64,000 nucleotides of DNA from Candidatus Woesearchaeota archaeon (GTDB taxonomy: Archaea; Nanobdellota; Nanobdellia; Woesearchaeales; JABIAG01): positions 1 through 64,000 of the forward strand of contig JABIAG010000002.1 in the NCBI GenBank assembly GCA_018653365.1, given 5' to 3'. The notes beneath the pieces were generated by a model that did no database searches, was not told the origin of the DNA, and worked only from the letters and a program-made list of their open reading frames with translations. Shown here piece after piece: positions 8,087-60,616 of the stretch. The first letter of the stretch is position 1. The number at the start of each line of letters is the position of its first letter. The translations under genes were made by a program, and so were the position numbers.

Positions 8087-8728
8087 ATGGAAAATGTTTT
8101 GATTTTGTGCGCACATCCCGACGATGAAGTGTTTGGTGTAGGTGGCACTATAGCCAAGTATGTTAACGATGGGAATAAGGTAACTAGTGTTATTTTTTCT
8201 TATGGTGAGAAGGCACTTCCTTGGTTAAAGCCTGAAGAAGTGGTTAAAATCCGGAAGAATGAAAGTTTAAGGGCGGCTAAAGTGATTGGTACTCATAACA
8301 CGATTTTTTTAGGGTTGGCTGAAGGAAAAATTGGCGATGCTTCTAAAAAGATTCAAAATGAATTAAAAGTGATAATTAAAAAAATTGATCCTTCCAAAAT
8401 TTTTACTCATTCTCTAGATGATCCTCATGCTGATCATCGTGCAGTTTATAAGTTGGTTATGGAAATTTTAAAAGAGATTAAATATGTGAATGATTTGTAT
8501 GCGTTTGATGTTTGGAATCCAGTTCTTCTTAGAAAGAGAAATTCTCCAAAACTTTATGTTGACATAACTGATACGTTTAAGTTAAAACTTAGTGCTTTGA
8601 AGAAATTTAAAACACAAAATGTTCAGGGTAGGTGGCCTCTTATGCCTGCAGTTATTTCTAGAGCGTTTATTTATGGTATTATGAGTAAGCATCGTTTTGC
8701 AGAAAGGTTTGTTAAACTTAGTTTGTAG
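8087..8728 (+). CDS. PIG-L/LmbE family deacetylase
   Basis: AHPDDE, GGTIAK, HADH, KFKTQ, AERF. Confidence 0.9.
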   Translation: MENVLILCAHPDDEVFGVGGTIAKYVNDGNKVTSVIFSYGEKALPWLKPEEVVKIRKNESLRAAKVIGTHNTIFLGLAEGKIGDASKKIQNELKVIIKKIDPSKIFTHSLDDPHADHRAVYKLVMEILKEIKYVNDLYAFDVWNPVLLRKRNSPKLYVDITDTFKLKLSALKKFKTQNVQGRWPLMPAVISRAFIYGIMSKHRFAERFVKLSL

Positions 8729-8824
8729 GCTCGACCGTTAGGGAGACCTACTTCGTTTGGCATTGGCGAAAGAATGCTGAGTGAGCATCGTTTTGCAGAA
8801 AGATTTGTTAAACTTAGTTTGTAG
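8682..8824. repeat. 47-bp direct repeat of the PIG-L 3' end (8682-8728 / 8778-8824) flanking a 49-bp hairpin insert
   Basis: tgagt(a/g)agcatcgttttgcagaaag(g/a)tttgttaaacttagtttgtag, 2 mismatches. Confidence 0.95.
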
Positions 8825-8858
8825 AAACATTTATTAAGTAATTTGCTAATTTTTTAGT

Positions 8859-9530
8859 ATGAAATTAGGTCTTTATGTTTTCATGGTTATTATTTTTGTT
8901 TCTTTTGTATTTGCATTTGATTTGGATGACCTTCCTTTGGGTGATTTGCCAACTCCTAGTACTGGGGCGGATTCTGATTTAGATGATGCGTACGATTCTG
9001 CTTCTGCTGATGAGAGAGGTGACAATCTGCACTCTTCTACAACTTTTTATGATGATCCTCCTGAAAATTATAGTCCTCCGGCTCCAACTAATCCTGTTGT
9101 GCTAACTCAACCAAATACTATAAAAAATGCTTCTGAGCTGGTTGCTGATTTAAGAGCGGAGTTAAACTCTAAGTTTTTAACAGAATCTGAAATACAATCC
9201 TTAATCTCACAATACTCTCTTTCAGAGTCAGAAATCCTTGTTTTAATAGAAGAATATGTAAATGAAAAAAGATCCCCCTCTCATTATTTGACATATATTC
9301 TTTCTGGAGGAGTTATTTTTTTAGTTGTTTTAATCTTGATTATATTGTTTGTTACAAAGAAAAATTTAAAAGGTAAAGGTGTTAAGGTTGAAAGTAACGT
9401 TAATGAGTTGGTTGAATATATCAAAAAGAATTCGTCTTTTTCTTCTGTTCAGCTTAGATTGACATTAGCACAGGGTGGCTGGTCTGATAAGGACATAGCT
9501 CAAGCATTTAAGATTGTAGGGAGGAGTTAA
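8859..9530 (+). CDS. Secreted/membrane protein with the same C-terminal 'YI....L..GW..DI..AF' domain as 4191-5180
   Basis: Signal peptide, acidic Pro-rich linker, TM helix, LVEYIKKN...LAQGGWSDKDIAQAF. Confidence 0.65.
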   Translation: MKLGLYVFMVIIFVSFVFAFDLDDLPLGDLPTPSTGADSDLDDAYDSASADERGDNLHSSTTFYDDPPENYSPPAPTNPVVLTQPNTIKNASELVADLRAELNSKFLTESEIQSLISQYSLSESEILVLIEEYVNEKRSPSHYLTYILSGGVIFLVVLILIILFVTKKNLKGKGVKVESNVNELVEYIKKNSSFSSVQLRLTLAQGGWSDKDIAQAFKIVGRS

Positions 9531-9531
9531 A

Positions 9532-12396
9532 ATGAAAAAAATTATGTTATCATTAATTGTTTGTGTTTGTTTGTTTTTGGTGGGTTGTAGTAATGATTTG
9601 CCTCCTGAACCTGGTGCGATTGGGGGTTCTGATGATCTTACTGTTGGTGGTGCGATTTCTTATGCTACTTCTAGTTTTGGTCCGCCTTATGATATTAATG
9701 AGGGGAATGAGAATATTTTTTCGTTAGCTTCTTATGTTATAACGTTAACTGCAGGTGATACTACTGCTGATGTTGATGTTAATGTTGATCATGATGATGG
9801 TTTTATTTACAAGTATGGTTATTACTATACTTTTGATGGTTGGGAACAGTTTACTTTTAGTGAAAGCACAGTGGGTAGTTCTAACTGGATTAGGGACTCT
9901 GCTAGTGTTGAATTAGATATTGATGTTGATGATTTAGATGAAGGGCAAAATTTTGTTGTTGCTTATTCTTGTAAACTTTATGGAGGTTCTTGGAAGTGTG
10001 GTTGTGATTCTGTTGCTTGTGGTCAGTGGATGATTCAAGAATTTGACCTTGCTAAATTCCAATTCCCTGATAGTCCAACAGATCCAGAAGATTTACCTCA
10101 ATTTGAGGAAGATTCAGTGCTTATTAAAGCTAGTGGTAACAAATTAAATATTGGTGAAAGTATTGCGGATATTAGACCTAATGCTTTAGGTGACTCTGAT
10201 TTGCCAAATCTTTTGCGTGATGGAGTTTTTGAAGATTCAGAAGGAGCAAACCGAGACGACTATTCTTACACGCAACATTTAGCTTTTACTGATGATACAG
10301 GAACCCTGGCTGTTGTACAAGATGATGATGACGCACCCGATGGTGGTTTATATCTCGTATTTGATAGAAGTCTGGATGATGTAATGTATGAATATGACCT
10401 ACATTTTGATGATGCTGTTATTTATGATGCGTCTTCGTCAAACCTAGCTTGGATGGATTTGGTAAATCTGCCGTTAAATATTCAAGGAGAAGTTTATGGT
10501 GTTGTTTCAGTAATGTTAAAACAGGATGGTAGTGTAGATTCCTTGCGTTTATCAAACGCAGGGTTTGTTGCACAGTATGGTGGGACGGTGAAAATAGTTG
10601 CATTAAATGATAGTAAAGAAGTTGAAATTAATGGTATTAATATTGACGGTTCTGAAGTTGTTATTTATAGCACTCCTGGAGAGCTTGATAGTTTTATGAT
10701 TAACTACGTTCCAGAAGATAAAATTTATCTTGCTCCGGGTGATGAATTTGTTGATCCTGTTTTAGGTAATTTTAAATTTGTTTTTGCTGGATTTGAACCG
10801 GTTAATTTTGATGAAATTCGTTTTGAAACTGTTGGTCAAAATGTGGAGCTGATTTATCCTGATGAGGCTGGGGTGGAACAAACGGTTGAATTTGTTTGTG
10901 AAGGAGACTGTGATGCAATTGAAGATGGGATAACTTATTCCGGACCAACAACTATAACTACTGATAGCGGAGCACAAATTGTGATTCAAGAAAGCCAAGC
11001 AGGTGTTTTTAATGTAGTAATTACTGAACCTTCAGGCGTGTCTGATGGTGAAGATTCTTCATCGCAAATTAATATTGGTCTTCAAATTGATACTGCCGAC
11101 GAAGAATTACATCCAGTTTTTGGATCGGTAACTTCGACTTATCCTGAAGTTGATGTATCTGTTTCAGATAACATCAATAAGATTCTTTATACAGATTATG
11201 GAACGCGAATTGATTACAATTCAAATAATTTGGCAAGTACTGAACTAATAATTAATTTGCCTGAAGAAGAAATTAGTGCTAGAGTGTTTGTTACAGCGGG
11301 TCCGGGAGTGAGTATACCTTCTGAAGGGTCTGAGGCTTCTGCTGCAGTTGAACTTATTGCTGCGGACATTGGTGATTTTGTTTATGCTAGCTCTGTTGAA
11401 TCAACTACCTGTGAGCTTGCTTTGGGAACTTGTGAGGGTTCTGAAACTGCGACTTATACGGGAGACTTTGGGGTTGCTGCTACGGTTATGTCTTTTGATG
11501 CTGAAGTTGGTGCTTCGCAGTTACGTTCTGCTTTGCCTAGTACAACTTATGTTGCGGGGGATGTTGTGGGTGATGAGAATGTTTATCTTGCTCAGACGAG
11601 TGCAGACTGGTGTTATGTTTGGGTGAATGGTGAAAATGTTGTTAGAGTTTGTGGTGAGTCAGATAATAGTCCGTTTTCTGTTGCTGAAACGTATCTTACT
11701 GCGATTAGTAGTGAGTTAAATGCGGCATCTGTGTCTACTAAAGACTGTACGCTAAGTAATGTTGACTTAGATGGTAGTGGGGTTGTTGATGATATTGATT
11801 TGGCAACTTTTTCACTTGCAAACTTTTTGGCATTTAGTGCTGCCAACGATTTTTATGTGGATGATAGTAATCAAATTGATTTTAAAGATACTATGGCTTA
11901 TATTGATTGTTTTAATGAGCTTGTGACTGATGACTGGGCTAAGCCTCTTGTGGTGGATCGGATTATTAATGCTGTGCCGAGTGCAGAATTTGATTTTCAG
12001 ATTGCTTTTAAGAACTTTAAGTTTAATAGTTTAAAAGAGCTGGCGTATTATGATAAGGCCATAGTTGCCCCGCATAATAAGTTTCAAATTAATCCGAATT
12101 TTTATCCTTCGGATGGTATGATTTATATTAATTTGAGGGATGCTTCATATTCTGGCGAGCAAACGATTGAGTTAGAAACGGATATTGGTGTAATGACTGT
12201 TTGTCTTCCTGATATGAGTATTTCTGGTGTGTCTAACTTTTTATTAGTTGGGGATGATGGTTCTACTTATTGGTTGAATGAAGCTAAAACGCCTGCAACA
12301 ACGGTGGGGAGTACGTTTTGGTATCATCCTGATTTAAAGGATAGTTCTTTATTACTGCCTTTAAAACCAGGACAGCTTGCAAAAGAATGTGATTAA
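9532..12396 (+). CDS. S-layer-related acidic lipoprotein with a dockerin-like motif pair
   Basis: Lipobox LVG-C; WKCGC domain; S-layer-like segment (DLPNLLRDG...YTQHL, FVDPVLGNFK); DLDGSGVVDDIDL. Confidence 0.6.
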   Translation: MKKIMLSLIVCVCLFLVGCSNDLPPEPGAIGGSDDLTVGGAISYATSSFGPPYDINEGNENIFSLASYVITLTAGDTTADVDVNVDHDDGFIYKYGYYYTFDGWEQFTFSESTVGSSNWIRDSASVELDIDVDDLDEGQNFVVAYSCKLYGGSWKCGCDSVACGQWMIQEFDLAKFQFPDSPTDPEDLPQFEEDSVLIKASGNKLNIGESIADIRPNALGDSDLPNLLRDGVFEDSEGANRDDYSYTQHLAFTDDTGTLAVVQDDDDAPDGGLYLVFDRSLDDVMYEYDLHFDDAVIYDASSSNLAWMDLVNLPLNIQGEVYGVVSVMLKQDGSVDSLRLSNAGFVAQYGGTVKIVALNDSKEVEINGINIDGSEVVIYSTPGELDSFMINYVPEDKIYLAPGDEFVDPVLGNFKFVFAGFEPVNFDEIRFETVGQNVELIYPDEAGVEQTVEFVCEGDCDAIEDGITYSGPTTITTDSGAQIVIQESQAGVFNVVITEPSGVSDGEDSSSQINIGLQIDTADEELHPVFGSVTSTYPEVDVSVSDNINKILYTDYGTRIDYNSNNLASTELIINLPEEEISARVFVTAGPGVSIPSEGSEASAAVELIAADIGDFVYASSVESTTCELALGTCEGSETATYTGDFGVAATVMSFDAEVGASQLRSALPSTTYVAGDVVGDENVYLAQTSADWCYVWVNGENVVRVCGESDNSPFSVAETYLTAISSELNAASVSTKDCTLSNVDLDGSGVVDDIDLATFSLANFLAFSAANDFYVDDSNQIDFKDTMAYIDCFNELVTDDWAKPLVVDRIINAVPSAEFDFQIAFKNFKFNSLKELAYYDKAIVAPHNKFQINPNFYPSDGMIYINLRDASYSGEQTIELETDIGVMTVCLPDMSISGVSNFLLVGDDGSTYWLNEAKTPATTVGSTFWYHPDLKDSSLLLPLKPGQLAKECD

Positions 12397-12421
12397 TTTT
12401 TTTTATTTTCTTTTTTTAGAA

Positions 12422-15922: not shown

Positions 15923-15945
15923 AATTTCAACAGCTAATTAATTTA

Positions 15946-16108
15946 TAAACTTTTCTATGGTTTATACTCAGAACGACACATTGCTTGTGGAGTGAGGTTG
16001 TGTAAACTTTTCTATGGTTTATACTCAATGCAGATCGTTGAGTATTTCCAGAACGTTAGTGATGGTTTATACTCAATGCAGATCGTTGAGTATTTCCAGA
16101 ACGTTAGT
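15946..16108. repeat. Nested direct/tandem repeats with hairpins upstream of smc
   Basis: 25-bp repeat at 15946-15970 / 16003-16027; 47-bp perfect repeat at 16014-16060 / 16062-16108. Confidence 0.95.
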
Positions 16109-16156
16109 TAGGAGTTATATTGTTTTAATAAAATAATAAAAAGAAAAAATAAAATT

Positions 16157-16872: not shown

Positions 16873-17454
16873 ATGATATTTATGGAAAAAGAAGAAATTA
16901 AACTTAAAATAAATTTGCCCTTTCTTAAGTTAGAATTAAAAGGAGACCCTGCTAAACATCTTGGCGAGATTAGAAAGATCATCATGGAATTAAATAAGTT
17001 CTCTCTTAATGAATTAGAAGCAGATGCATTAGAAGAGTTAATGCCTTCTTTTGGTCTGCCTGTTTGGAAATTGTCTAGCGAATTACAAAAGAATGAGCAG
17101 GTTATGAATAACATTACTGAACTTTCCCAAATTGAGGACGGTGTTTTAGTTAAGAAAACATCTTTGGATAATATTAATGAAATTACAGATACTAAGACTA
17201 TTTCTAAACTTAATGTTAAAGAAATTTCTAGGTCTGTTTCAACGCTGTTTGATGACATTAATAAAACTCAGGTTAATTTTGCTATTGTTCATGCGATTGG
17301 TAATCTGCCAGCAGATAACTTTTCTATAATTTTTGATCAAGTAAAGAAACATCTTCCTAATACTAAGATTGAGGCTATTAAAACTAAAAAAGAAGTTCTT
17401 GGGAAAACAGTTATTGAGTGTGTTCTTTTTGGTAATTTTCCTAATGAAGAATAA
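16873..17454 (+). CDS. Hypothetical protein; C-terminal half resembles the FtsZ/tubulin C-terminal domain
   Basis: The pattern AIVHAIG...FDQVKKHL...EVLGKTVIECVLFG echoes FtsZ-C. No GGGTG motif. Confidence 0.45.
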   Translation: MIFMEKEEIKLKINLPFLKLELKGDPAKHLGEIRKIIMELNKFSLNELEADALEELMPSFGLPVWKLSSELQKNEQVMNNITELSQIEDGVLVKKTSLDNINEITDTKTISKLNVKEISRSVSTLFDDINKTQVNFAIVHAIGNLPADNFSIIFDQVKKHLPNTKIEAIKTKKEVLGKTVIECVLFGNFPNEE

Positions 17455-17891
17455 TTAGTTTGATTTTTTCTATTAAGCAAAAAATTCACTTAAGAATGTG
17501 TAACTGGAGTCAACATTCGATTTTATCTCCACGTGATCATTGTCTTCAAATGTTCTTCTGCCTAAGGAAACGGTTTCTGCTTTACCTGATACTGCCACCA
17601 TCTTAACGTTTTGGTTTAATGTCACCGCACTTGCATATGCGTTTCTAGCAGGTTCATCATCAACTGCTCCTGGTCGTTCAAAGTTAAGGTCCATGACTAG
17701 GGCATCTGTTGGTGTTGATAATGCAGTTCTTAATTCATCAGCGTTTGTGCAACTAATAGGGTCATAGTCTAACATCTCCATCCTCACTTTCATGAGTTCT
17801 CTTAAGGAGGGATTGTGCATTGCTATTACTGCTCTTCTTTCTGTCATTTTATGTCTCTGTTCTTTTTGGTAATTTTCCTGAGGAAGAATAA
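17421..17891. repeat. 34-bp direct repeat (17421-17454 / 17858-17891) bracketing the receiver-domain gene
   Basis: tgttctttttggtaattttcct(aat/gag)gaagaataa, 2 mismatches. Confidence 0.95.
17473..17847 (-). CDS. Stand-alone response-regulator receiver (CheY-like) domain, degenerate
   Basis: ALVMDLNF (phospho-Asp), VAVSG, Lys near the C-terminus. The N-terminal acidic pair is missing. Confidence 0.6.
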   Translation of the reverse strand: MTERRAVIAMHNPSLRELMKVRMEMLDYDPISCTNADELRTALSTPTDALVMDLNFERPGAVDDEPARNAYASAVTLNQNVKMVAVSGKAETVSLGRRTFEDNDHVEIKSNVDSSYTFLSEFFA

Positions 17892-22687: not shown

Positions 22688-24742
22688 ATGCTAATTAAAA
22701 CCCTAAAGCTCAACAACATAAGAACATATTTAGATGAAACTATAATTTTTCCAGATTCTTCAATAATGCTTTCAGGAGATATTGGGTGTGGAAAGTCATC
22801 TATTTTATTAGCAATAGAGTTTGCATTGTTTGGGATCTTACGAGGTGAACTGTCTGGAGAATCATTACTAAGAAAGGGTTCTACTGAGGGGAGTGTTGAA
22901 CTAGAGTTTCAAATAAACGAGCTTCCTTTAACAATAAAACGAACTCTTAAACGCTCGCCAAAAGGCGTGCAACAATCGGCAGGTTTTTTTATAGAAAATG
23001 GAATCAAAACTGAGGCAACTGCAATAGAACTAAAAACAAAAATTCTAACTCTGTTAGGTTATCCACAATCATTACTCACAACATCTAAATCTTTAATTTA
23101 CCGTTATACAGTTTACACGCCACAGGAAGAGATGAAACGAATAATTCAAGATGATGAGGAGTCTAGATTAAACATACTTAGAAAAGTTTTCAACATGGAC
23201 AAGTATAAGCGAATAAAAGAGAATGCAAGTACATTTCTTCTAACTTTAAGGGATGAATTACTTATTGATGATACTAAATTACAATCACTTTTTGATAAAC
23301 AGCGAGATCTTGCTGAAACGTCTTTGCAATTGAAACAAGTTGATGAACATCTTAAGTTGAGCTCTCCAAAGGAAGAAGTAATTGTTGCTGAGAAGAAACT
23401 TAAAATTCAAAAAATTAATGAAATTGAAACACATTTAGTGGAATTGAATAAGCTTAAGCAAACACTCTCAATTCAAGAAACTAACCTAAAAAATATTGAA
23501 ATTAAAATATCTGCTAATATTAATAAGATTTTTGAGACTAAGAATAAAAAAGAAACTCTTGAGTTAGAACTTGCTCAAACAAAATTGGATGATGAAGAAG
23601 AATTAAAGTCTAAAATACTTGCTTTAACAACAGTACTAGCTAATTTAGAACAAAAAGAGCGTGATGTAATTGCAAAAACATTTTCATTTAAGGAAAAAAT
23701 AAAAGAGGCTGAACAATTAAGTGAAAAGATAGCACAGTTAAAGAATTGCCCGCTATGTCTACAACCGGTTAATGATCTTCACAAAAAACTTGTCTCAGAA
23801 GAAGAACAAAAGAAGATTGCCGAATTTAAACAACAAATAGAATTATTAAATAAGGAACCCTCAAATGCTGAAGAAAAGAAGGTACAATTAGATGAATTTA
23901 AGAGATCTCTTAATAAAATCGAACTTATTAATTTCAAAAAGAAAACTCTTGACGAATACATTTTAACAATTAAGGAGTTGGAATCAGAGAACTTAGAGTC
24001 CAAGACAAAGATTGAATCCATAAACCAGGTTAAATCAGAATTGGTGTCTAAGATTGCAGGATTTGCACAATTAGAAGAACAGTATAAAAAGATTAAGCAA
24101 CAATATCTTGAGGTTTTAGAATCTGAAAAATCTTTGCACGTTAAATTAGCAGAACTAAAAACAAAGAAAGAAGCCTATTTTATTACTACAAAAAAGCTTG
24201 AAACCGAAATTGACTATCTTCTTAAGCTTCAACAGGAAGTAAAGAAACGAAGAGCTTTACAGAATTGGATCAAGGAACACTTTCTTAAGGTTGTAGATCT
24301 TATTGAACGTCATGTAATGCTTAAAATTCAACAAGAGTTCAATGGCTTTTTTCAGGAGTGGTTTAATTTTATGTTGGAGGATGAAAACATTTCTGCAAGG
24401 TTAGATGAAAAGTTTTCTCCAATTGTAACACAGAATGGTTATGAGATCGCATTTGGAGATCTTTCTGGGGGGGAAAAGACTAGTGTTGCTCTCGCTTATC
24501 GGTTAGCGCTTAACAAAGTTATTAATGATCTTATCTCAACAGTAAATACTAAAGATATTATTGTTCTTGACGAGCCTACTGATGGATTCAGTTCTGAACA
24601 ATTAGATAAACTCAAAGATGTTTTAGATCAACTAAATATGAATCAGGTAATTTTAGTGTCTCATGAATCTAAAGTAGAATCGTTTGTAGGTAGTGTTATT
24701 AGAATAACAAAAAATGCAGGTGTTAGTAAAGTTTTAGTTTAG
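22688..24742 (+). CDS. rad50: Rad50/SbcC DNA repair ATPase
   Basis: Walker A GDIGCGKSS, Zn hook CPLC, LSGGE, VLDEPT, VSHE. Confidence 0.88.
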   Translation: MLIKTLKLNNIRTYLDETIIFPDSSIMLSGDIGCGKSSILLAIEFALFGILRGELSGESLLRKGSTEGSVELEFQINELPLTIKRTLKRSPKGVQQSAGFFIENGIKTEATAIELKTKILTLLGYPQSLLTTSKSLIYRYTVYTPQEEMKRIIQDDEESRLNILRKVFNMDKYKRIKENASTFLLTLRDELLIDDTKLQSLFDKQRDLAETSLQLKQVDEHLKLSSPKEEVIVAEKKLKIQKINEIETHLVELNKLKQTLSIQETNLKNIEIKISANINKIFETKNKKETLELELAQTKLDDEEELKSKILALTTVLANLEQKERDVIAKTFSFKEKIKEAEQLSEKIAQLKNCPLCLQPVNDLHKKLVSEEEQKKIAEFKQQIELLNKEPSNAEEKKVQLDEFKRSLNKIELINFKKKTLDEYILTIKELESENLESKTKIESINQVKSELVSKIAGFAQLEEQYKKIKQQYLEVLESEKSLHVKLAELKTKKEAYFITTKKLETEIDYLLKLQQEVKKRRALQNWIKEHFLKVVDLIERHVMLKIQQEFNGFFQEWFNFMLEDENISARLDEKFSPIVTQNGYEIAFGDLSGGEKTSVALAYRLALNKVINDLISTVNTKDIIVLDEPTDGFSSEQLDKLKDVLDQLNMNQVILVSHESKVESFVGSVIRITKNAGVSKVLV

Positions 24743-24776: not shown

Positions 24777-25760
24777 ATGGATTATCCTAATTTTAAAAAA
24801 AAGATAGACCCTGCTTTTAGAGCACAATTCTTTGATCATAGTGCCCATCATATGGAACATCATCTAAAAAAGATTATGGATCAATTAACTACTAAATACG
24901 ATTCTTATGAGTTGGAATTTTGGGAGTGGATTGCTGAACATGTTCATTTAATGTATGATTTAAAAGATGCATTAGAATATTTAAACAGTAATTTTTCAGC
25001 TAAAGAATTATTAGATCAGTTTCGTACAGCAAGAACTTTGGGTAGGGTATTATATGCGGGATTTTACACTGATTATTTTAAAGGAAAGACCGGGCAAGAA
25101 ATTTTGGCAGAAAACAATATGGATAATCATAAATATTATGAAAAGATTAAAGAAATTATAAAAGAGATAGAAAAATATAGGGATGAGATAAACCAAAACG
25201 GAAAAATCTTGAAGACCGAACGCCAGAGCATGGATTTTTATTACTTAGAACTATATCCTGCCCTAAAGAGAAATAAACAATTACGATTTTATCTTACCGC
25301 AAACCCCTTGCATCTAAGAGATTGCATATTTAGATTGTTAGAAGAACTTTTTAAAGTAGCGAATGAAGATCAAACTAGAATAGATTTTAAATTTTATGCG
25401 GGGGGAAAGGGGTATAGGAGAGATAGCATAGTTATTTATGGTCAAAAGAAAATTAAGAGCGTAATAAAAGACCTCCCCGATAATTGGTTTTTAGAGTCTC
25501 ATCTTCCTTTTGGTAAAAAGATTGCTAGTGGGAGAACTATTACTAAAGATAAAGGTAAAGAGATAAACGAAAAAGTTCTGGATAGCCGTGCCGAAAATTC
25601 AAATGGTTCGGCGTTAACTCAAATACTTGCTGATGTTTTGTATGGGACCGTTAAACATAATGATAAAATGCCTGAAAAACCAGAAGCGCAGTTTAACATA
25701 ATTCTTGATGTATGTTACAACCTTTTTATTAAAAGAGTAAAGATTCATGATGGATTGTAA
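24777..25760 (+). CDS. Hypothetical protein with a HopA1-like C-terminal domain
   Basis: LRFYL ... DFKF ... RRDSIVIY ... PFGKKI motif order resembles 'T3SS effector HopA1 family' proteins. Confidence 0.45.
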   Translation: MDYPNFKKKIDPAFRAQFFDHSAHHMEHHLKKIMDQLTTKYDSYELEFWEWIAEHVHLMYDLKDALEYLNSNFSAKELLDQFRTARTLGRVLYAGFYTDYFKGKTGQEILAENNMDNHKYYEKIKEIIKEIEKYRDEINQNGKILKTERQSMDFYYLELYPALKRNKQLRFYLTANPLHLRDCIFRLLEELFKVANEDQTRIDFKFYAGGKGYRRDSIVIYGQKKIKSVIKDLPDNWFLESHLPFGKKIASGRTITKDKGKEINEKVLDSRAENSNGSALTQILADVLYGTVKHNDKMPEKPEAQFNIILDVCYNLFIKRVKIHDGL

Positions 25761-25854
25761 AGTTTTAACTTAACTCAATACTTCTTCTCTATCATCAAAA
25801 GATTTATAAATTTCTGTGATTATTTCTCTTTTATCACAGTTGTGAGGGGATTAT

Positions 25855-27331: not shown

Positions 27332-27546
27332 CCCCGTCTGGCTTAACTGGCTAGAGCACTTGGCTGTAGATGTTGTGTAGAGTTGTCTTTTAAAGACTGA
27401 GATGAAACACGACCAGCTGTTACCGAGGGATTCCTGGTTCGAAACGCACCGTAGGAGCGTTTCGCTCAGAACGAAGCCATTTCATGGCGTAGTGATGATG
27501 CGAAATTCATAATCTCTTACTATGCGAGAAAGTCCGGGGACGGGGA
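27332..27546 (+). tRNA. tRNA-Tyr(GTA) with two introns (37/38: 27370-27421; 59/60: 27444-27532)
   Basis: Acceptor CCCCGTC/GACGGGG, D-arm GCTT..GAGC, anticodon stem CTTGG/CCGAG, T stem CCTGG/CCGGG, discriminator A. Confidence 0.88.
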
Positions 27547-32906: not shown

Positions 32907-33335
32907 TTATTTTTTAATAAACGTTCTTATCATATTTGCTTTTTCTTTTCTTCCTGTTTTTTCATAACATTCTGCCTCTGTTTTAAGGTCAAAAACGTTT
33001 ACCTCAACTTCTGCACATTTGATTCTTTTTGTTTCATCTAATTTTCTGGAATAAATGCTAGTTTCGTAGTCGGCACAAATTTGTACTTCTACATCTTTGA
33101 TATGCACATTAAATTCTTCACATTCTTCAGAACTGTTTTTTTTGATTTCTGTGGTTTTGTAGTCTTTAAATGCACGTTTTACTTTTTGTATGTCTTTGTT
33201 TTTTATGAGAATGTCTAAATCTTTTGGTTTTGTGTTTATTCCTTGAAGTGCCAAGGAAGTGCTGCCTATTATTGCCCATTTAATGCTTAATCTATTAAGT
33301 ATTGATGCAACGTTTTTTATTACTTCAGATTTCAT
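32907..33335 (-). CDS. Nucleotidyltransferase (Pol-beta superfamily, aminoglycoside-NTase-like)
   Basis: WAIIGSTSLALQG...PKDLDI. Confidence 0.75.
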   Translation of the reverse strand: MKSEVIKNVASILNRLSIKWAIIGSTSLALQGINTKPKDLDILIKNKDIQKVKRAFKDYKTTEIKKNSSEECEEFNVHIKDVEVQICADYETSIYSRKLDETKRIKCAEVEVNVFDLKTEAECYEKTGRKEKANMIRTFIKK

Positions 33336-33715
33336 TTCTTAATAAATTCTTTAAATGTATTCGGTAAATCAATCATGTATTTACCTTCAGAAAGTTTTAC
33401 TATTAATGGTTGTTTTTTAAACAAGCTAACCAGATCTAGTTCATACTTTCCTGGTTGCAATACGCGAACACTCTCAAAGTCTAGTATTACTGGGTCGTCT
33501 TTGTTCCAGTCCTGTCCTACTAAGTCAAAAACATCTTTTTCTAGTTCTGTTTTTTGTTCTTCGGATAACTTTTCAGCAAATTCTTGTTTTTTTAACTTTT
33601 CTAATTTTTCTTTTTTAATATAGAAGAATAATTTTCCACCGCAACTACATCCAGTTAGTATTGCTTTATCTCCGTCATCGTAGAAATTATTACACCGTAC
33701 ACATTGATGGGGCAT
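33332..33715 (-). CDS. Zn-ribbon protein DUF2072 (OapC-like)
   Basis: MPHQCVRC, GCSCGGKLFFY, ESVRVLQPGKYELDL; third gene of the cluster. Confidence 0.88.
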   Translation of the reverse strand: MPHQCVRCNNFYDDGDKAILTGCSCGGKLFFYIKKEKLEKLKKQEFAEKLSEEQKTELEKDVFDLVGQDWNKDDPVILDFESVRVLQPGKYELDLVSLFKKQPLIVKLSEGKYMIDLPNTFKEFIKK

Positions 33716-42120: not shown

Positions 42121-42214
42121 TGGGGCAACCGGGATTTATGTCATCACTTCGTTCTGGACAAATCCCTATTGTTTGTAAACCAATTTAGGATAAGAAATGG
42201 GGCAACCGGGATTT
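42121..42214 (-). repeat. 17-bp duplicate of the tRNA-Phe 3' end (42121-42137 / 42198-42214) with a 60-bp hairpin spacer
   Basis: Exact repeat tggggcaaccgggattt. Confidence 0.92.
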
Positions 42215-42302
42215 GAACCCGGGACACCTGCGTCTTCAGCGCAGCGCTCTCCCAGTCTGAGCTATTGTTCTGGTTTCAAAAGCCGTAACTTCCAAAATCC
42301 CC
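42198..42302 (-). tRNA. tRNA-Phe(GAA) with a 31-nt acceptor-stem intron (42268-42298, position 4/5)
   Basis: Spliced sequence GGGG^CAA TA GCTC AGACTGGGA GAGC G CTGCG CTGAAGA CGCAG GTGTC CCGGG TTCAAAT CCCGG TTGCCCC A; BRE/TATA at about 42335-42352. Confidence 0.88.
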
Positions 42303-42430: not shown

Positions 42431-42573
42431 AAAAGAGCCTCGCGCAAAACTCTTTACAAAAACTTTTCCCTCAAAGAGGTCGGAACTGGTGTTCCTAAAA
42501 GTTTTTTGTGAGTTTCGCTGGTTGAGTCTCTTTTTTTGCCAAATCCAAAGTTTTGTGTAGTGAAAACTTTGGA
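42431..42573 (+). ncRNA. Structured leader or small RNA upstream of the LAGLIDADG gene
   Basis: Long interrupted stem 42431-42534 with two internal hairpins and a T7 tract, plus a perfect 11-bp hairpin (42544-42554 / 42563-42573) overlapping the RBS. Confidence 0.5.
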
Positions 42574-42583
42574 GGTTAAGAAA

Positions 42584-43330
42584 ATGAATAAAAAACCACT
42601 TTTAGTATTTGATGATGTATTAAGAACATACAAGTCTGAATATCACGGAAGAAAAGCATTTGAGAGTTACATGTCTTGGTTTCCGTTAATAGTTTCCCCT
42701 TGTCTTGCGGGAATTGTTGCAGATTTAATGTGTGATGGACATTTACAAGGTAAAAAATGGAGGTTTGATTACACTTCCAATTCTATTGAAGAGTTAGAGA
42801 GATTCAACAGAACGATTCATTCTTTATTCAAAGTTAAAGGTAAAGTAAGAAAGTGTACAACCAATAAATATGAAACTTTTAATCTAGGTGTAAATAACAG
42901 TCCTTTAGCAAGAGTGTTGAAACTTCTAGAAGTCCCTGCAGGAGCCAAGGTTTTATCTAGTTTTTCCATTCCTGATTGGATTCTTGCTGATAAGACTCTG
43001 TTTGGTAGATTCATAAATCGTTTAGTTAGTTGTGAAGGGTCTGTTGATGTAAAAAATAAATGTATTGACATTAGAATGTCAAAGTCTGAAGACTTGATTG
43101 TTGACGGTTTGTCATTCTTCAAAGATATTCAAAATTACTTGTGGAATTATTTTGAGATTAAAACAACAAACCCTTTTTTAGATCGAAGTTTCAATTTAAG
43201 AAAAGATGGGATAAAAACAAAGACGATCCGACTAAAAATAAAAAGGAAAGAATCTCTTATAACTTTCAACAAATTCATAGGTATTGATGATAAAATTAAG
43301 AATAAAAAATTAAAAAGAATAATTGGTTAA
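42584..43330 (+). CDS. Free-standing double-motif LAGLIDADG homing endonuclease
   Basis: LAGIVADLMCDG and FINRLVSCEG motifs; GGAGGT RBS before ATG 42584; no intein ends. Confidence 0.85.
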   Translation: MNKKPLLVFDDVLRTYKSEYHGRKAFESYMSWFPLIVSPCLAGIVADLMCDGHLQGKKWRFDYTSNSIEELERFNRTIHSLFKVKGKVRKCTTNKYETFNLGVNNSPLARVLKLLEVPAGAKVLSSFSIPDWILADKTLFGRFINRLVSCEGSVDVKNKCIDIRMSKSEDLIVDGLSFFKDIQNYLWNYFEIKTTNPFLDRSFNLRKDGIKTKTIRLKIKRKESLITFNKFIGIDDKIKNKKLKRIIG

Positions 43331-52659: not shown

Positions 52660-52733
52660 GGTGACCATAGTGTAGCCTGGTAGCATTGAAGCCTGTGGAG
52701 CTTTAGGGGCGGGTTCAAATCCCGCTGGCCACC
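52660..52733 (+). tRNA. tRNA-His(GTG) with encoded G-1
   Basis: G GTGACCA..TGGCCAC C; anticodon stem GAAGC/GCTTT; T arm GCGGG TTCAAAT CCCGC. Confidence 0.92.
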
Positions 52734-52838
52734 CTCTTTTTAATTTCTTAAATAAGGAGTAGTAGAGTCATATCTATACTTCTTGGAGGACTAAAATGAA
52801 ACAAAAAACAGAACAGATTAGGGAGGCTAAGGCACAGG

Positions 52839-53345: not shown

Positions 53346-54298
53346 ACGCAACAGAATTAACAAAGGAATTATTAAAAATTCCTTCCCCTTCTGGGGAGGA
53401 AAAAGAAATAGGTAACTACTTAGTTAATAGATTGAAAACTAATTTTGAGGTAACAACTCAAAAGGTTGATAATAATTTCAATATTTTTGCAATTAAGGGT
53501 AACCCAAAACTTGTTCTACAAACGCACATAGATACTGTTCCCAAACAATTGGAGTTAAAAGAGGATGTAGGATTTGTTTATGGTAGGGGTGCCTGTGATA
53601 CTAAAGGAATTATTGCATGTATGGTTCTTGCTGCTGAAGAAGCTGTCAAGGTAGGGAAAACTAATTTTGGATTGGTTTTTACAGTATGTGAAGAGACTAA
53701 TTTTGCAGGAATTAAGCAAGCAGTAACGCAGTTGGATCCTGAATTGGTGATTGTTGGCGAACCAACTGATTTTAAGGTTGTTTATGGACAAAAAGGAATA
53801 TTTTCTTTTAAGATTGAGTGTAAGGGTAAATCTGCTCACAGCGCAATGCCAGAAAAAGGAGACTCTGCAATAATCAAATTGTTGGATGAGTTAGATAGAA
53901 TAAGAAAAATTAAACTTCCAGAGAACGAATTAGGTAAGACTACCTTGAACATTGGGACAATCAAGGGTGGAACAGTAAACAATGTCATTCCTGATTATGC
54001 AGAAGCAGATATTTCAGTTCGAACTACTGTGAGTGCAGAAGAGATAAAAGAATTGTTGGGAATTAAAGAAGCAGTTAGTTTAGATCCCACCATAATAACT
54101 GACCAAGAATTACTCGACAAGTTTTCATATGATAAAATAACTGTTCCTTATTTTACGGAAATGTATTTTTGGAAGAAAGCAATTGTGTTTGGTCCAGGCA
54201 AAATAGAATTTGCACACAGTGATGATGAAAAAATCAGTAAGACTGATTTGGAAAGGGGAAAAGAAGAGTATTTGCAAATTATTAATTTATTGTCCTGA
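53342..54298 (+). CDS. M20 family metallopeptidase/deacylase (ArgE/DapE-like)
   Basis: SPSGEE, THIDTV, GRGACDTKG, CEE, VGEPT, SAHS, AHSDDE. Confidence 0.9.
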   Translation: MNATELTKELLKIPSPSGEEKEIGNYLVNRLKTNFEVTTQKVDNNFNIFAIKGNPKLVLQTHIDTVPKQLELKEDVGFVYGRGACDTKGIIACMVLAAEEAVKVGKTNFGLVFTVCEETNFAGIKQAVTQLDPELVIVGEPTDFKVVYGQKGIFSFKIECKGKSAHSAMPEKGDSAIIKLLDELDRIRKIKLPENELGKTTLNIGTIKGGTVNNVIPDYAEADISVRTTVSAEEIKELLGIKEAVSLDPTIITDQELLDKFSYDKITVPYFTEMYFWKKAIVFGPGKIEFAHSDDEKISKTDLERGKEEYLQIINLLS

Positions 54299-55762: not shown

Positions 55763-55882
55763 GCATTTGGTTAATTTCCTGGTTATTATAAAAATTTGTA
55801 TATACTTTAATGAATTTCACCACTCAAAGGTAACACATAACCAAAAACTTTAAATACTAATTATGCTTTACTGGTCTATAAT

Positions 55883-56893
55883 ATGAGACAAATGCTTGCT
55901 AAATACAGTGGTGCACTAAGAGATTCTTTTAATTATGCTAGACGTACTTCTGTTTCTGATGCTGGTAAAGACCTTAGTTCTTATGTTGGTCGTGTTGCAG
56001 GTGATGCTAGATCTTATGTTTCTGATGCACGGGATTCTATTGGTGAATTTTCTAATGGATTTTTTTCTAATGGATTTGTTAGCTCGATGAGACGTTTAAG
56101 TGGTAATCCTATGCAATCTTTGGCTTTTGCTGGTGGTTATGCTCAACGTATGCCTGAAGATAGACAACAAGAACTTGCTGGTCGTGGTTATGATGCTTTA
56201 AGAGCTCAACACGGTAAAGGTGCGGGTAAAGCACTTGAAAAACTTCAATCTCAACATAAAGATTTCACACTTATAGAATTACTTGTAGTAATTGCAATTA
56301 TAGCAATTCTTGCAGGTATGTTACTTCCTGCTTTGGCTGGTGCTAGAGAAAAAGCAAGATCTTCACAATGTATTAATAATTTGAAACAGCAAGGACTTGC
56401 TGCAACAATGTATGCTCAAGATTATGAAGGAATGTTCCCACAAGCTTCTGGAGCAGACCCTTATGTTACGCCTACAATTAGATTGCGAGCGGGTGCTACA
56501 GCAATTATGGGGGCTGGAAGACTTATTGATGGAAATTATGGTGTTGGGCCAGAACAATTTGAATGCCCTTCTAATTCTAATAAGTGGTTTAGGGGAGGAA
56601 AAGTGGTAAGTAATTGGGGGAGTTTAGCAACTGTTGATAATGCTTACATGTGGACTGGTATGCGAAATATCCGAAGGGATAGATCTCCAACTAGTTCTGT
56701 TTTGGCTTTTGATGCCAACGTTCTTGGTGGCGGAAGTGCAAGTAATGGTCATCCTGGTGGGGTTAATTTAGTTCGTGCAGATGGTGGAGCACAACGTGAG
56801 AACGATACTGCGGGAATTTCTCGTCCATTGACTAGTTCTAGTACTAATATGGCTGATGCTTCAGATCGTTTACAAACCCAATTTGGTCAATAG
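55883..56893 (+). CDS. DUF1559/H-X9-DG prepilin-type protein with a 127-aa N-terminal extension
   Basis: [53 protein letters not shown]. Confidence 0.88.
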
Positions 56894-56937
56894 TTGGCTT
56901 TCTAAATAAAAACATTTAAATAGTTCTTTTCTGATAC

Positions 56938-56980
56938 GTTAAACATATTAACCTAATTTAACAGGTTAAACTTGTTTAAC
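56938..56980. promoter_or_regulatory. Operator-like array of TTAA(A)C half-sites, including the palindrome GTTAAAC-tt-GTTTAAC
   Basis: Five TTAA cores 8-10 bp apart, between the TATA box and ATG 56982. Confidence 0.6.
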
Positions 56981-56981
56981 T

Positions 56982-57140
56982 ATGAAGTCAAATAAACTAA
57001 TTAAAAATCTTGATGAACAAACCTGGAATAAGTTTGTTGCTTTCTGTAAGCTAAAGAATGTTAAGGTAGCTCCTGAACTCGAAATCATAATAAATACGCA
57101 TTTAGATAAGAATCTAAAACAATTGTTCAATAAAAAATGA
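56982..57140 (+). CDS. Small ribbon-helix-helix-type regulator (52 aa; absent from the ORF track)
   Basis: MKSNKLIKNLDEQTWNKFVAFCKLKNVKVAPELEIIINTHLDKNLKQLFNKK; ATGA overlap with the next gene. Confidence 0.7.
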   Translation: MKSNKLIKNLDEQTWNKFVAFCKLKNVKVAPELEIIINTHLDKNLKQLFNKK

Positions 57141-59689
57141 AAAATAGAATACTTGCATCACTAACCTTGGTTTTTGCACTTTTCGCAGTGTTTGCATTTT
57201 ATAATCAGGGGATTACGGGGTTTGTTGTTAATGTGGGGGCATGTAATTTTAATGCAGATAGTGTGGGAGAAACATACACTTTATCAGGAAACCTGGGAAC
57301 TTGCTCTGGGGAAAATGCAATTAATGTTTTAGCTAATAACATTATTGTTGATTGCAATGGTAATGAGATCATTGGAAATGGGGTGGCGGGGAGCGCAATG
57401 GGTATAAATGTGGGTGCTAGTCTGACGGGAATCACCCTCAAGAATTGCATAATTAAAGATTTTCTTTTTGGTATTTCAACTGCGGGTTCGGGGGTTTCTA
57501 TTGAAAACGTTCAGATTTATGATGATGATATGAGCTCTTGTTATACTGGAGGAAATCCCACTGAAGTTGGAGATCTTAATTACTGCGGTGCCGAAGCTGA
57601 TCTGCCGGTAACAGACAATGCTCCAACTATAACATCTTTAGATTTTCCTCCTGATGATGAAACTATTATTAATGTTCCTGTTGATTTTAATTTTACTGTT
57701 TGGGATGATTTTAATGTTTCTACCTGTGACTTGTGGTCGAACTTTAGCGGTACGTGGGAATTAAACTCTTCCATTGCTCCTGAGAATAATCACTCTGAAA
57801 CGTTTAATTTTACCCTATCGCCTTTGGATGGCGAATATATTTGGAATGTTAATTGTACTGATAATGCAACAACTCCTAATTCTGTTTGGTATGCTGCAGG
57901 TAATTATTCAGTAACTATCAACACAACTGATCCTCCTCCAACCATTACAGAATTAACTCATCCCTCTTCAACGTTTAGTGCGATTGCCGAACCTTTGGAT
58001 TTTAATTTCACTGTTCATGATAATTGGAATGTTTCAAATTGTTCTTTGTGGACAAATATTTCAACTGTTTGGGCTGAAACTGCGTTTAGAACTATTGGTA
58101 CTAATGTTTCTGCCACATATAATATTTCGTTGGTTGTTGGTGTGGGAGACTATATTTGGAATGTTAATTGTACTGATAATGCTTCTAATTCTTCGTGGTA
58201 TGTGTCTAATGCTTCAGTTGTTATTTCTGATCCTGCTCCAACATTAAGCTTATATTCTCCAAGTTCTGCTTCAACAGTTTCTGCAGTTCCTATGAATTTT
58301 ACGTTTAATGTTTCTGATAATTATAATGTTTCGAGTTGTTCTTTATTTGCTAATTTTAGTGGAGCTTGGAGTCAGAATGATTCTTTGGAAATTCAAAATA
58401 ACACTCAAGGTATTTACAACTTGACTCTTTCCCCGACTGATGGAATTTATTTGTGGGGTGTTAATTGTTCAGACAATGCATCTCAAACAACTTGGTCTGA
58501 TAATTATACTGTTACTGTCAATGCAGTGGATGATTATCCTACGGTGACTCTGGCTTCGCCAAGTAATGCAGCATCAATTACTGCATCGTCAACTACTTTG
58601 CAAATTACAACTTTGGATGATTATAATGTTACGGCTTGTACTTTGTGGACTAATTTTAATGGTTCTTGGGCAGCTAATGAAACCCTGAATGTTAGTGTTC
58701 CTGCTTCCACAACAACGTCATTTACTGTCTCTCCAGCATATGGTACTTATACTTGGAATGCTAATTGTACTGATAATGCTTCTCAGTCTTCTTGGGCAGC
58801 AGATAATTTCACATTTGCTTTACAACAAGCTACAACAACTAGTAATACTGGGGGAAGTAGTGGGGGGGGAAGCGATGACGATGATGAGGAAGAGGTTACT
58901 CCTGCTCTTGTCATTCCTGCTGTAGTTCCTGTTGAAGAAGAGGAAGAAGAAGTTGAAGAAGTCATTGAGGAAGTTGTTGAAGAAGAATTGTTTGCTCCGC
59001 CTGTTGAGGAAGAGGAAGCAGAAAAACAAGAATCAATATCAAATGCAAAAAGGTCAAAATCAGAGATAGTTGAGGTAGAGTGTGATCCTGCAGAGAGTAA
59101 TTGTGATGAATGGTTTGATAACTTAATAACAAAGATGGATCGTACTTTGGATAAGGTTGATTTGACAAAGAATGTGACTTTTGATAACGAAACTAATACT
59201 ACTAAAGTCGCGATTAGTATTGTTCCTGAAGAGGATCTTGAAGATTTCAGGTATTATCAAAGTATTCCGAAGTGTATGGCAATTTATGTTCACTTAGTTA
59301 AGTTTAAGAATACTGATTTCGAGGTATTAAAAGACGATCCTTTGATTGTTTGGAGTTTTGCAAATGTTCAAAAAGGTGAAGAATTAGATCTTGGTTTTGA
59401 GGTTATGGGTGACATTCCAGAGAATTGTTATGAATTCATTTCCGAACTTCTTTATGAAGAACAAGAAAAGTTTTCTGGTAAGCATATGTTTGGGTTGATC
59501 ACTGGTTTGTCAGTTCTTGGTTTGGTTGCTTTGGGTATTACGTATTCTTCTAAGTATTCACACCATTTAGTTGCTGCTAAGAATGTTGGAACTAAGTTCT
59601 TTAAGAAATCATCTAAGTCTGAGATAAAAGTACCTGCTAAGGTTGATAAAAAGATCGATATCATCAAAGAAAGGATGAAACAATTATAA
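57137..59689 (+). CDS. Surface glycoprotein with four Ig-like repeats and a C-terminal TM anchor
   Basis: ITGFVV N-terminus, beta-helix-like segment, four repeats ending Y.W..NC.DNA, dense NxS/T sequons, GGSSGGG plus acidic linker. Confidence 0.8.
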   Translation: MKNRILASLTLVFALFAVFAFYNQGITGFVVNVGACNFNADSVGETYTLSGNLGTCSGENAINVLANNIIVDCNGNEIIGNGVAGSAMGINVGASLTGITLKNCIIKDFLFGISTAGSGVSIENVQIYDDDMSSCYTGGNPTEVGDLNYCGAEADLPVTDNAPTITSLDFPPDDETIINVPVDFNFTVWDDFNVSTCDLWSNFSGTWELNSSIAPENNHSETFNFTLSPLDGEYIWNVNCTDNATTPNSVWYAAGNYSVTINTTDPPPTITELTHPSSTFSAIAEPLDFNFTVHDNWNVSNCSLWTNISTVWAETAFRTIGTNVSATYNISLVVGVGDYIWNVNCTDNASNSSWYVSNASVVISDPAPTLSLYSPSSASTVSAVPMNFTFNVSDNYNVSSCSLFANFSGAWSQNDSLEIQNNTQGIYNLTLSPTDGIYLWGVNCSDNASQTTWSDNYTVTVNAVDDYPTVTLASPSNAASITASSTTLQITTLDDYNVTACTLWTNFNGSWAANETLNVSVPASTTTSFTVSPAYGTYTWNANCTDNASQSSWAADNFTFALQQATTTSNTGGSSGGGSDDDDEEEVTPALVIPAVVPVEEEEEEVEEVIEEVVEEELFAPPVEEEEAEKQESISNAKRSKSEIVEVECDPAESNCDEWFDNLITKMDRTLDKVDLTKNVTFDNETNTTKVAISIVPEEDLEDFRYYQSIPKCMAIYVHLVKFKNTDFEVLKDDPLIVWSFANVQKGEELDLGFEVMGDIPENCYEFISELLYEEQEKFSGKHMFGLITGLSVLGLVALGITYSSKYSHHLVAAKNVGTKFFKKSSKSEIKVPAKVDKKIDIIKERMKQL

Positions 59690-59761
59690 GCCCTTGAAGA
59701 GATTTGAACTCTCGATCTTCTGCTTACGAGGCAGATGCATTAGCCGCTATGCTACAAGGGC
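59689..59761 (-). tRNA. tRNA-Thr(CGT)
   Basis: GCCCTTG..CAAGGGC T; TCTGC CT CGT AA GCAGA; TTCAAAT. Confidence 0.94.
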
Positions 59762-59814
59762 ACTAACTGTTCTACTTTCATAAACTATAAAAAGATTTCC
59801 TCCTAGACTTAAGT

Positions 59815-60561
59815 ATGGCTTCTATTGGATTGTGGAAAAAGGCGGCAAACATTGAGGGGGTGGGTTTACTTTCAACTACTGGTGTTTATTCCAAGATTAA
59901 AGGGATGGGTTTGAAAACAGTTCAATGGATTAAGTTTTCGCCAAGTTCTAAAAAAGATATTCTAAATATGAAAAAGCGGTGTTCAGAATTCATAACTAAA
60001 CATACCCCCTGTTTGTTTATTTGGGAGCCAAGACACACTGGTGAGAAAGGTTATATTATTGATGTGAATGAAATAAGTCAAGTTGTTGAGTCATTAGCTA
60101 GTTTGCCTGTTTTGGCTTATTCTTATTTGATCACTACACAAATATCTAATCCTAAAAAGGGATTCATTGGAAGTGTAATCTCTGATGGTAAAGGGAAGTT
60201 GTATTGCGAAACTTATCATGAACCAGGAATTTGTAGTCATCGTGTGTTAAGTCAGTCAAAAATAGATGAGAATAAATCAAGTTTTTTTGGTAGATTCTCA
60301 ACAGTAAATTTCGACCTATTTAATTTGGAAGGAAGTGTTTTATCTTCTGCTAATGTGAGAACTATATTGAATAATTATTCTGGTATGAAGGGCTATTTTG
60401 AGTTTGTTTACGGTGTCCATCTGGGAAATTGGGAGTTGTGTACAACTGGTTTTGAGAATTTGGGTTTTATCACCTTTCCCGAACACGTTGTAAGCGCAGC
60501 TTTAAGTAGTACAGGAAACCGTTGGCGTGCTGAAACATTAAGACATTATTCTGATTTCTGA
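59815..60561 (+). CDS. Hypothetical protein
   Basis: 248-aa ORF with an upstream TATA; no confident motif. Confidence 0.55.
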   Translation: MASIGLWKKAANIEGVGLLSTTGVYSKIKGMGLKTVQWIKFSPSSKKDILNMKKRCSEFITKHTPCLFIWEPRHTGEKGYIIDVNEISQVVESLASLPVLAYSYLITTQISNPKKGFIGSVISDGKGKLYCETYHEPGICSHRVLSQSKIDENKSSFFGRFSTVNFDLFNLEGSVLSSANVRTILNNYSGMKGYFEFVYGVHLGNWELCTTGFENLGFITFPEHVVSAALSSTGNRWRAETLRHYSDF

Positions 60562-60616
60562 CAAGGTGAACGTTAGAGAGCTTTTTCAGAAATCTCTGAT
60601 TTCTGACAGAGTGAAC
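60550..60616. repeat. 22-bp direct repeat spanning the stop codon (60550-60571 / 60595-60616) plus the palindrome TCAGAAATC-tct-GATTTCTGA
   Basis: tctgatttctgaca(ag/ga)gtgaac. Confidence 0.85.

Follow-up and report, generated by a model that had tools for sequence, protein, structure and literature searches.

How does a densely coding genome take up new DNA without losing the genes that it already holds? The question is raised by a 64,000-nucleotide stretch of a Candidatus Woesearchaeota archaeon (GCA_018653365.1, contig JABIAG010000002.1, positions 1 to 64,000; the window in what follows), in which the last bases of several genes and of a tRNA reappear a short way downstream and bracket an insert. 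The host genome (G000) comprises 1.09 Mb on three contigs (C1, C2 and C3, the window being C3:1-64000), with 34% GC, about 92% coding DNA and a completeness of 95%; homologues that bear a name come from Woesearchaeota. An earlier note on this DNA had listed six such loci and proposed that incoming DNA brings a replacement 3' end together with cargo and strands the old end downstream. The duplication of 3' ends proved to be real and genome-wide. Its usual passenger is not a gene, being one of about 25 copies of a tandem-GA hairpin element of 35-80 bp. Replacement of 3' ends by incoming DNA, mostly carrying this small non-coding element, is the explanation that we favor, with moderate confidence. 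The affected sites read as the gene with its new end, a spacer, the element or a gene, the old end and the old flank; the upstream, active end of the gene or tRNA is called here copy A, and the stranded downstream end copy B.

Stranded ends across the genome

Gene ends were searched, over our own gene calls (n = 1174), for a stop-anchored second copy in non-coding DNA at most 1.5 kb downstream; the paralogue ends at C1:258987 and C1:265277 were excluded through the requirement that the second copy be non-coding. The earlier note had suggested such a search against a null, and the enrichment is strong. A score of at least 11 was reached by 14 of the 1174 gene ends downstream, by 1 of 1174 upstream and by 0 of 2320 controls at other loci, and a score of at least 16 by nine ends downstream and by none upstream or at other loci. 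A scan for short repeats adds tRNA-Lys, -Ser, -Arg and -Leu, one end resembling that of a non-coding RNA and several TATA boxes, and over all sites the repeats are 5-71 bp long.

The sites were compared mainly with G002 (CAYRWJ01), a genome of the same genus (mean protein identity 82%, 789 kb compared, 79% complete) whose gene order is syntenic with the window, and further with G001, G003 and G004, with a third close relative (L232-L235; 75-87% nucleotide identity) and with 400 genomes of the order. At the PIG-L deacetylase gene (8087-8728, plus strand, 213 aa, Pfam PF02585), the active 3' end (copy A, 8682-8728, plus) is followed by a two-hairpin element (8725-8777, plus), whose 3' end abuts the stranded end (copy B, 8778-8824, plus), and then by the ancestral flank. 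As the earlier note had described, the copies span 47 bp around a 49-bp insert; their two mismatches are one non-synonymous (AAG/GAG) and one synonymous (AGG/AGA). The region is identical across three independent assemblies, the site is empty in the relative L234, and G002 has a variant of the element at the same junction.

The description of gene 16873 (16873-17454, plus, 193 aa, unknown family) is likewise borne out. Its replacement end (…PNEE*, copy A, 17421-17454, plus) and its stranded old end (…PEEE*, copy B, 17858-17891, plus), the latter followed by the ancestral flank leading to TFB, are 34 bp long with two mismatches, and enclose a cargo gene on the minus strand (17473-17847) with a receiver-like fold by structure comparison (TM 0.76) and no hairpin element at the junction. 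The region is 100% identical in the independent assembly L214. The site is empty in L232/L233, where the gene ends in …PEEE* and runs into the flank that follows the downstream copy in G000; the end is …PEEE* also in G002, which carries a different insert behind the gene. Finally, at tRNA-Phe, on the minus strand, the active 3' end (copy A, 42198-42214) and the stranded end, which starts from the T loop and is followed by the ancestral flank (copy B, 42121-42137), are an exact 17-bp repeat, as had been claimed, and G002 has the empty site. The search for relatives lacking the insert, which the earlier note had proposed, thus succeeded at all three loci.

Chance or misassembly is refuted for these three loci and very improbable as an account of the phenomenon, given the empty sites, the 0/2320 controls and the 100% identity of the PIG-L and 16873 stretches in independent ENA, NCBI and JGI assemblies, which shows that these two are not misassemblies. 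On the other side stand scaffold gaps of G002 at two arrays and the scores of rad50 and oapC, both within the null distribution. The six loci of the earlier note therefore divide: PIG-L, 16873 and tRNA-Phe stand, 59815 was misassigned, and rad50 and oapC are at chance level. At rad50, an 11-bp exact match does lie within the weakly matching segments 24726-24742 (the gene's 3' end, plus) and 25757-25773 (plus), but the stop-anchored score is about 8 (hand count), while 10% of genes reach a score of 9, and the unproven second copy contains the stop codon of the gene that precedes it (24777-25760). Chance is likely the right reading here. The slot behind rad50 is variable, with a different, unrelated 161-aa gene and no repeat in G002 and other genes in G001 and G003; the gene at 24777-25760 is HopA1-like as a lead only (PF17914 in 12-29% of Atlas cluster members) and has no Pfam match. 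For oapC (Pfam OapC; 3' end 33332-33346, minus), chance is possibly the explanation: the pair matches at 13 of 15 positions, nearly all A/T, and the second copy (32907-32921, minus) is the C-terminus of the nucleotidyltransferase-like (NTase-like) gene itself. The capture claimed earlier is unproven. G002 lacks the NTase gene but has an apparent remnant of its end.

The 22-bp repeat near gene 59815 (60550-60616; copies 60550-60571 and 60595-60616, 20/22 identical) is real. Its supposed insert, however, is the C-terminus of a convergent 42-aa CxxC…CxxC zinc-finger gene (60701-60573, minus), which is shared with G002, so that gene 59815 has no capture behind it. Viewed on the minus strand, the second copy has the form of a short stranded end that carries a stop of its own, and a local duplication of the zinc-finger gene's end is the better reading of the pair. 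That gene (60573-60701, minus) had been missed by the open reading frame lists. Nearby, at 57670-58779, four internal repeats of about 300 bp lie within an 850-aa gene (57137-59689), probably encoding a surface protein.

The hairpin element and its arm

The element comes in two types, A and B, which fold alike: two base pairs, a tandem GA-GA, two further pairs and a loop of GNA or GNNA. In the 109 kb of non-coding DNA this tandem-GA hairpin pattern was counted 14 times; the 983 kb of coding DNA contain a single instance, and shuffled sequence gave 0.05. GNA and GNNA loops and sheared GA pairs are typical of hairpins in single-stranded DNA (ssDNA). The energies computed for the hairpins with ViennaRNA are weak, since sheared GA pairs fall outside its model. 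A search of the elements against Rfam returned tRNAs only and no RNA family match. A reading as K-turn or C/D box was rejected on inspection, there being no 3-nt bulge beside the GA pairs.

The 49-bp PIG-L insert is one of 10 type A copies in the genome. The PIG-L stop codon lies within GTAG, the first four bases of the element there. In the tandem-GA first stem of type A, 4 of 15 pairs covary, and the second hairpin is closed by either G-C or C-G. The downstream copy begins 0 nt past the end of the element in 9 of 13 repeat-bearing copies, with repeats of 12-55 bp; the position of the junction is thus set by the element itself. That the inserts at PIG-L and tRNA-Phe are members of a dispersed hairpin family, whose junction is fixed, had escaped the earlier note; for these loci it speaks against illegitimate joining purely at random.

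Type B, to which the tRNA-Phe insert belongs, has a core of about 15 bases, and longer variants exist. The bases that precede the core form an arm that is the complement of the opening 5-13 bases of the downstream copy; the register is fixed, while the arm itself varies between sites. Over 31 loci the mean complementarity of arm and target is 5.6, against 3.3 across loci (0 of 20,000 permutations, p<5e-5). The 60-bp element at tRNA-Phe (42138-42197, minus) consists of a spacer, an arm (42160-42166) whose complement is the T-stem strand at the start of copy B, and the core (42142-42156). At tRNA sites the arm is absent from the empty site and travels with the spacer, and one homologous 60-bp unit, spacer included, is found at tRNA-Phe in G000 and at tRNA-Gly in G002. 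At tRNA-Ser, copy B is the G002 allele, copy A and the arm having changed together. The elements move from one tRNA or gene to another and also stand in short arrays of 2-3 units. The tRNA-Phe appears to have an acceptor-stem intron in G000 (42268-42298), the 5' end in G002 being uninterrupted; a LAGLIDADG-like gene just upstream (42536-43330; weak Pfam match, E 0.001) is absent from G002.

Promoters are targets as well. In the smc promoter, the left copy of an inverted-repeat TATA region (15946-15970, plus) is followed by a long variant of the type B core with two tandem-GA steps (15969-15997, plus) and by the right copy together with two 48-bp tandem units carrying type B cores (16003-16109, plus; cores at 16049-16064 and, partial, at 16097-16109). 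The right copy and the tandem units are reproduced in L214, and elements occupy the same site in G001 and G002.

Type B cores also lie inside two tRNA introns, those of tRNA-Tyr (27467-27497) and tRNA-Ser(GGA). The tRNA-Tyr element (27440-27505, plus) is nested in the T-loop intron, has a 5-bp repeat (27440-27444 and 27501-27505) and a complementary arm, and is also present in G002. These positions speak for an RNA route, by which the hairpins would be mobile or fossil introns of the bulge-helix-bulge type and an uninterrupted allele would repair a gene broken near its end, stranding intron and old end. We regard this route as improbable, since the hairpins are also found at TATA boxes and past stop codons, where splicing would be of no help, and no reverse transcriptase match (RVT_1) was found in G000-G003. 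Moreover, GNA/GNNA loops and tandem GA are motifs of the DNA type. A diversity-generating retroelement was likewise rejected, with no RVT_1 in G000-G003 and differences between copies that are not limited to A.

The arm suggests a bolder possibility, which we put forward only tentatively and consider rather unlikely: a mobile stretch of DNA, protein-free and about 20-60 bases long, with a folded core that an unrecognised enzyme, possibly one of the host, would cut and join, and with an arm of 5-13 nt that would serve as a reprogrammable DNA guide by pairing to the target strand. Such a unit would always bring a replacement end and could thus enter tRNAs, essential genes and promoters harmlessly; it may seed tRNA introns and at times carry a gene.

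Several further repeats were noted. The tRNA-Ile repeat (C1:748441) was left out of the set, as it is conserved in G002 and has no core. Behind this tRNA lies a unit of about 100 bp whose last part repeats the tRNA end (C1:748441-748564); the unit is kept in G002 with few changes, also without the core, and may be a tRNA-like RNA. Type D is a further dispersed two-hairpin repeat, often near gene ends, which shares its first bases with the left side of type B (G000 C1:222235, 532839, 640732 and 668631; C2:120690; C3:89467 and 105027; G002 C7:29072). At C3:82101-82234 an element stands behind a GC-rich hairpin resembling the end of a non-coding RNA, and a relative (L141) carries a different variant at this position.

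Polarity of the copies and a proposed joining step

The direction of the change can be read from relatives, in which empty sites were found for about 12 sites of G000 and 5 of G002. G002 is empty at tRNA-Phe, tRNA-Lys, ferredoxin, C2:11044, C2:114156, C2:216410 and others, and G000 is empty at the G002 sites endA, tRNA-Gly, tRNA-His and tRNA-Leu. The flank that follows copy B is the ancestral one, preceded at C1:11146 by 28 extra bases, and the downstream copy matches relatives at diagnostic codons in 16873, C2:114156 and G002 endA. In addition, the copies differ in the way alleles do. The earlier note had seen that several differences are synonymous or stop-preserving, and over 14 coding cases (411 nt) we counted 20 such codon differences against 9 non-synonymous ones, with no indels; orthologue ends are 61% synonymous. 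Had the copies started as identical duplicates, one then under selection and the other drifting, 35-45% of the differences would be expected to be synonymous (p=0.0002-0.008). Among the changes assigned by hand to copy B, 9 of 16 are synonymous, against 21-29% under neutrality (p=0.002-0.02). Both copies were therefore once coding ends, in different lineages. The claim that incoming DNA supplies the new 3' end and strands the old one therefore agrees with the empty sites, the ancestral flanks, the diagnostic codons and the synonymous excess.

Several observations weigh against replacement by incoming DNA. The copy resembling the orthologs, which the earlier note had proposed to identify, is copy B at about 12 sites, but copy A matches the relative at 16 codons (both by hand tally), and the relatives used for polarity are only 75-88% identical. 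At sites shared between genomes (PIG-L, the smc promoter and C3:82170), copy B tracks copy A of its own genome, and in one assembly of low coverage copy A carries the B allele; the copies thus also exchange sequence later on, which blurs their origin. Some arms at promoter sites are already there as an inverted repeat where the site is empty, as is the smc repeat, without element, in L232. Two type A copies have no duplication at all, and the searches of G000 and G002 described below found no mobilising enzyme. A conspecific strain with the B allele was not found among the cluster members, as these are near-clonal.

Some of these points would be explained by a target-site duplication of variable length, in which an enzyme acting in trans makes staggered cuts (at palindromic targets, cuts at both hairpin feet) and leaves identical copies that later change by exchange, unequal crossing-over and drift. 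IS1549 and IS1634 leave long direct repeats of variable length, 8-514 bp, at their insertion sites (PMC2266710), the TATA-type sites duplicate a whole pre-existing inverted repeat, and both the arrays of 2-3 units and the tracking of copy A by copy B would follow. We nevertheless think this unlikely, though worth serious weight. The synonymous excess exceeds what the model allows (p=0.0002-0.008), the copies differing like alleles. The spacer that separates copy A from the element is not duplicated target: empty sites lack it, and different tRNA loci carry homologous versions of it. Furthermore, unlike IS1634, IS1549 and miniature inverted-repeat transposable elements (MITEs), the element has no terminal inverted repeats, and DDE_Tnp_1 (PF01609) has no match in five family genomes.

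The mechanism that we infer from the site structure, the junction, the empty sites and the allele-like differences begins with uptake of ssDNA and needs a cut and an enzyme. The ssDNA would come from a related strain and carry the end of a gene, its trailer and the element. The gene part would recombine by homology, or would integrate as a small circle via the shared 10-70 bp; the element end would be cleaved at the hairpin foot and connected to the recipient's gene a little upstream of the stop codon, helped in type B by pairing of the 5' arm with the target strand. Because only events that rebuild the gene would survive, a bias to 3' ends would result. The most likely candidates for the cutting and joining are an ssDNA nuclease that recognises hairpins or an HUH transposase, supplied in trans by a virus, a plasmid or a gene since lost, or else host repair enzymes.

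No match to Y1_Tnp, RVT_1, GIY-YIG, DDE_Tnp_1, Cas1, IS110 or resolvase was found in G000 and G002, other transposase families not having been searched. Y1 genes are lacking also in G003 and G004; those of G001 and G047 have no core nearby, and those of G001, G047 and G188 have no tblastn homologue in G000 or G002. The earlier note had found no integrase or transposase in the window, and the window genes that we scanned likewise revealed none; other parts of G000 contain three tyrosine recombinases, one of them adjoining a type B core. Dif-like sites were noted upstream of two XerA-like recombinases, C3:105511 and C1:543804 (sites on G000 C3 at about 106400-106480 and C1 at about 543760); the one on C3, located at the contig end, has no orthologue in the G002 sequence compared, which suggests a mobile element that exploits Xer.

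The recombinases allow for scars of integrase islands, that is, attachment (attL/attR) pairs left after near-complete deletion of viruses or plasmids. A rebuilt tRNA with a stranded 3' fragment as a direct repeat is the established geometry of tyrosine integrases such as those of SSV1 and pNOB8 (PMC3293823), and the tRNA junctions here lie in the T loop, a known target of these enzymes. The probability of this explanation is low in our view. More than 20 unrelated targets (protein genes, tRNAs and promoters), against one target per integrase, share a single remnant of 35-80 bp, with repeats of 5-71 bp; inserts are 35-100 bp, the tRNA units 60-100 bp, and there is no integrase in the unit or beside the repeat pair. 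G047 has 8 cores and no match to a tyrosine recombinase (PF00589).

Gene capture proper is a small part of the picture. A flanking repeat is present in 8 of 11 syntenic indels with the hairpin motif and in 10 of 58 without it (p=0.0005; 69 indels against G002, not polarised as gains). About 37 of the 69 carry genes, and only 6 of these have a repeat scoring at least 11, mostly of low complexity. Two sites of gene cargo are well supported, 16873 and C1:324660 (a 17-bp repeat with identical copies, empty in G002), both missed by the indel filter; LeuRS, with a repeat of 25 bp, and an ABC permease, with one of 47 bp, are probably further cases, though neither has a clean empty site. None of the four has a hairpin at the junction. 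Thus the gene-capture route of the earlier note exists, but it is not the main use of the signature and accounts for a small share of gene gains.

The type B pattern was matched in 24 of 401 genomes of the order, and a reversed control in 8, with one match each, so that most single matches are due to chance. Multiple copies occur in G000, G001, G002, G004 and G047. In the last, the 8 cores are branches inside a separate MITE bounded by terminal inverted repeats. Copies of this MITE (207-297 bp, 13-bp inverted ends, 9-bp target repeats; C3, C7, C14, C17, C19, C26 and C45; L190-L196) differ in which two-hairpin modules, with repeats of 3-4 bp, they have gained or lost. The tRNA-end arrangement was seen in G281, from another family. 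Viral contigs gave 45 matches to a 16-base motif, none with the rest of the element.

Relation to known systems and significance

The geometry itself is already established, from attachment sites, Rhs displacement and homology-facilitated illegitimate recombination (HFIR). HFIR and C-terminal displacement are known from Rhs, contact-dependent inhibition and type VI secretion system (T6SS) effector-immunity arrays (PMC5361080), where, as here, a homologous anchor is combined with a non-homologous joint and the new 3' part displaces the old one downstream. Our cases differ in that housekeeping genes, tRNAs and promoters are affected genome-wide, the old end is only 10-70 bp, and the joint is fixed in most cases by the hairpin element. 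At 16873 the end and flank of the empty site match the downstream copy and the new allele stands upstream, and at C1:324660 an empty site was found with identical copies; both fit ordinary HFIR.

The hairpin elements resemble REP/RAYT, Ssn/SRM and IS1634 systems but fall outside each of them by its defining tests. Repetitive extragenic palindromes (REP), with BIME, REPIN and the HUH Y1 protein TnpA-REP (RAYT), are also short, multicopy, extragenic imperfect palindromes that are non-coding, strand-specific and found in tandem clusters (PMC8266576, PMC3733652), and type A begins with GTAG or GTGG and can supply a TAG stop as GTAG REPs do. However, whereas the REP tag stands unpaired at the foot of the stem, the tetranucleotide of type A (GTAG, GTGG or GTAT) is paired within the stem, in covariation with the 3' strand; type B lacks a tag of this kind, no RAYT/Y1 match was found in G000 or G002, the host is an archaeon, and a long target duplication is not described for REPs in these papers (PMC8266576, PMC3733652). 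The Ssn GIY-YIG nucleases cut ssDNA a few bases aside of a hairpin in SRM/NTS repeats, on transforming DNA, and are reported to cut and not to join (PMC11893778). Read on the reverse strand, some type B cores start as the SRM tag does, and their junction lies on the side cut by Ssn; nevertheless, the degenerate SRM pattern has 0 matches in G000 and G002, and no GIY-YIG gene was found in G000, G002, G004 and G047, a motif scan being empty as well. IS200/IS605 elements choose their target by DNA-DNA pairing next to an ssDNA hairpin (PMC8266576). The arm here, by contrast, is 5-13 nt long and differs at each site. To our knowledge, IS200/IS605 elements make no target duplication. Casposons or CRISPR adaptation and IS110 bridge recombinases are defined by Cas1 and the DEDD recombinase, each found in 0 of 5 genomes. 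Literature searches, including those for DPANN archaea, revealed no paper on the hairpin element.

The significance is bounded by the established geometry, the minor share of gene capture and the missing enzyme. The present analysis adds the extension to the ends of protein genes, the polarity from empty sites, the synonymous excess and the arm statistic. The observations tie 3'-end displacement, as in Rhs/T6SS toxins and integrase attachment sites, to a small hairpin element, and, if the arm is a true guide, they would describe a minimal DNA-guided insertion system. The same core in two tRNA introns points to a testable DNA route to intron gain in archaea, an open question. The phenomenon also offers a worked, polarised example of how a DPANN genome that is 92% coding gains DNA without losing its resident genes.

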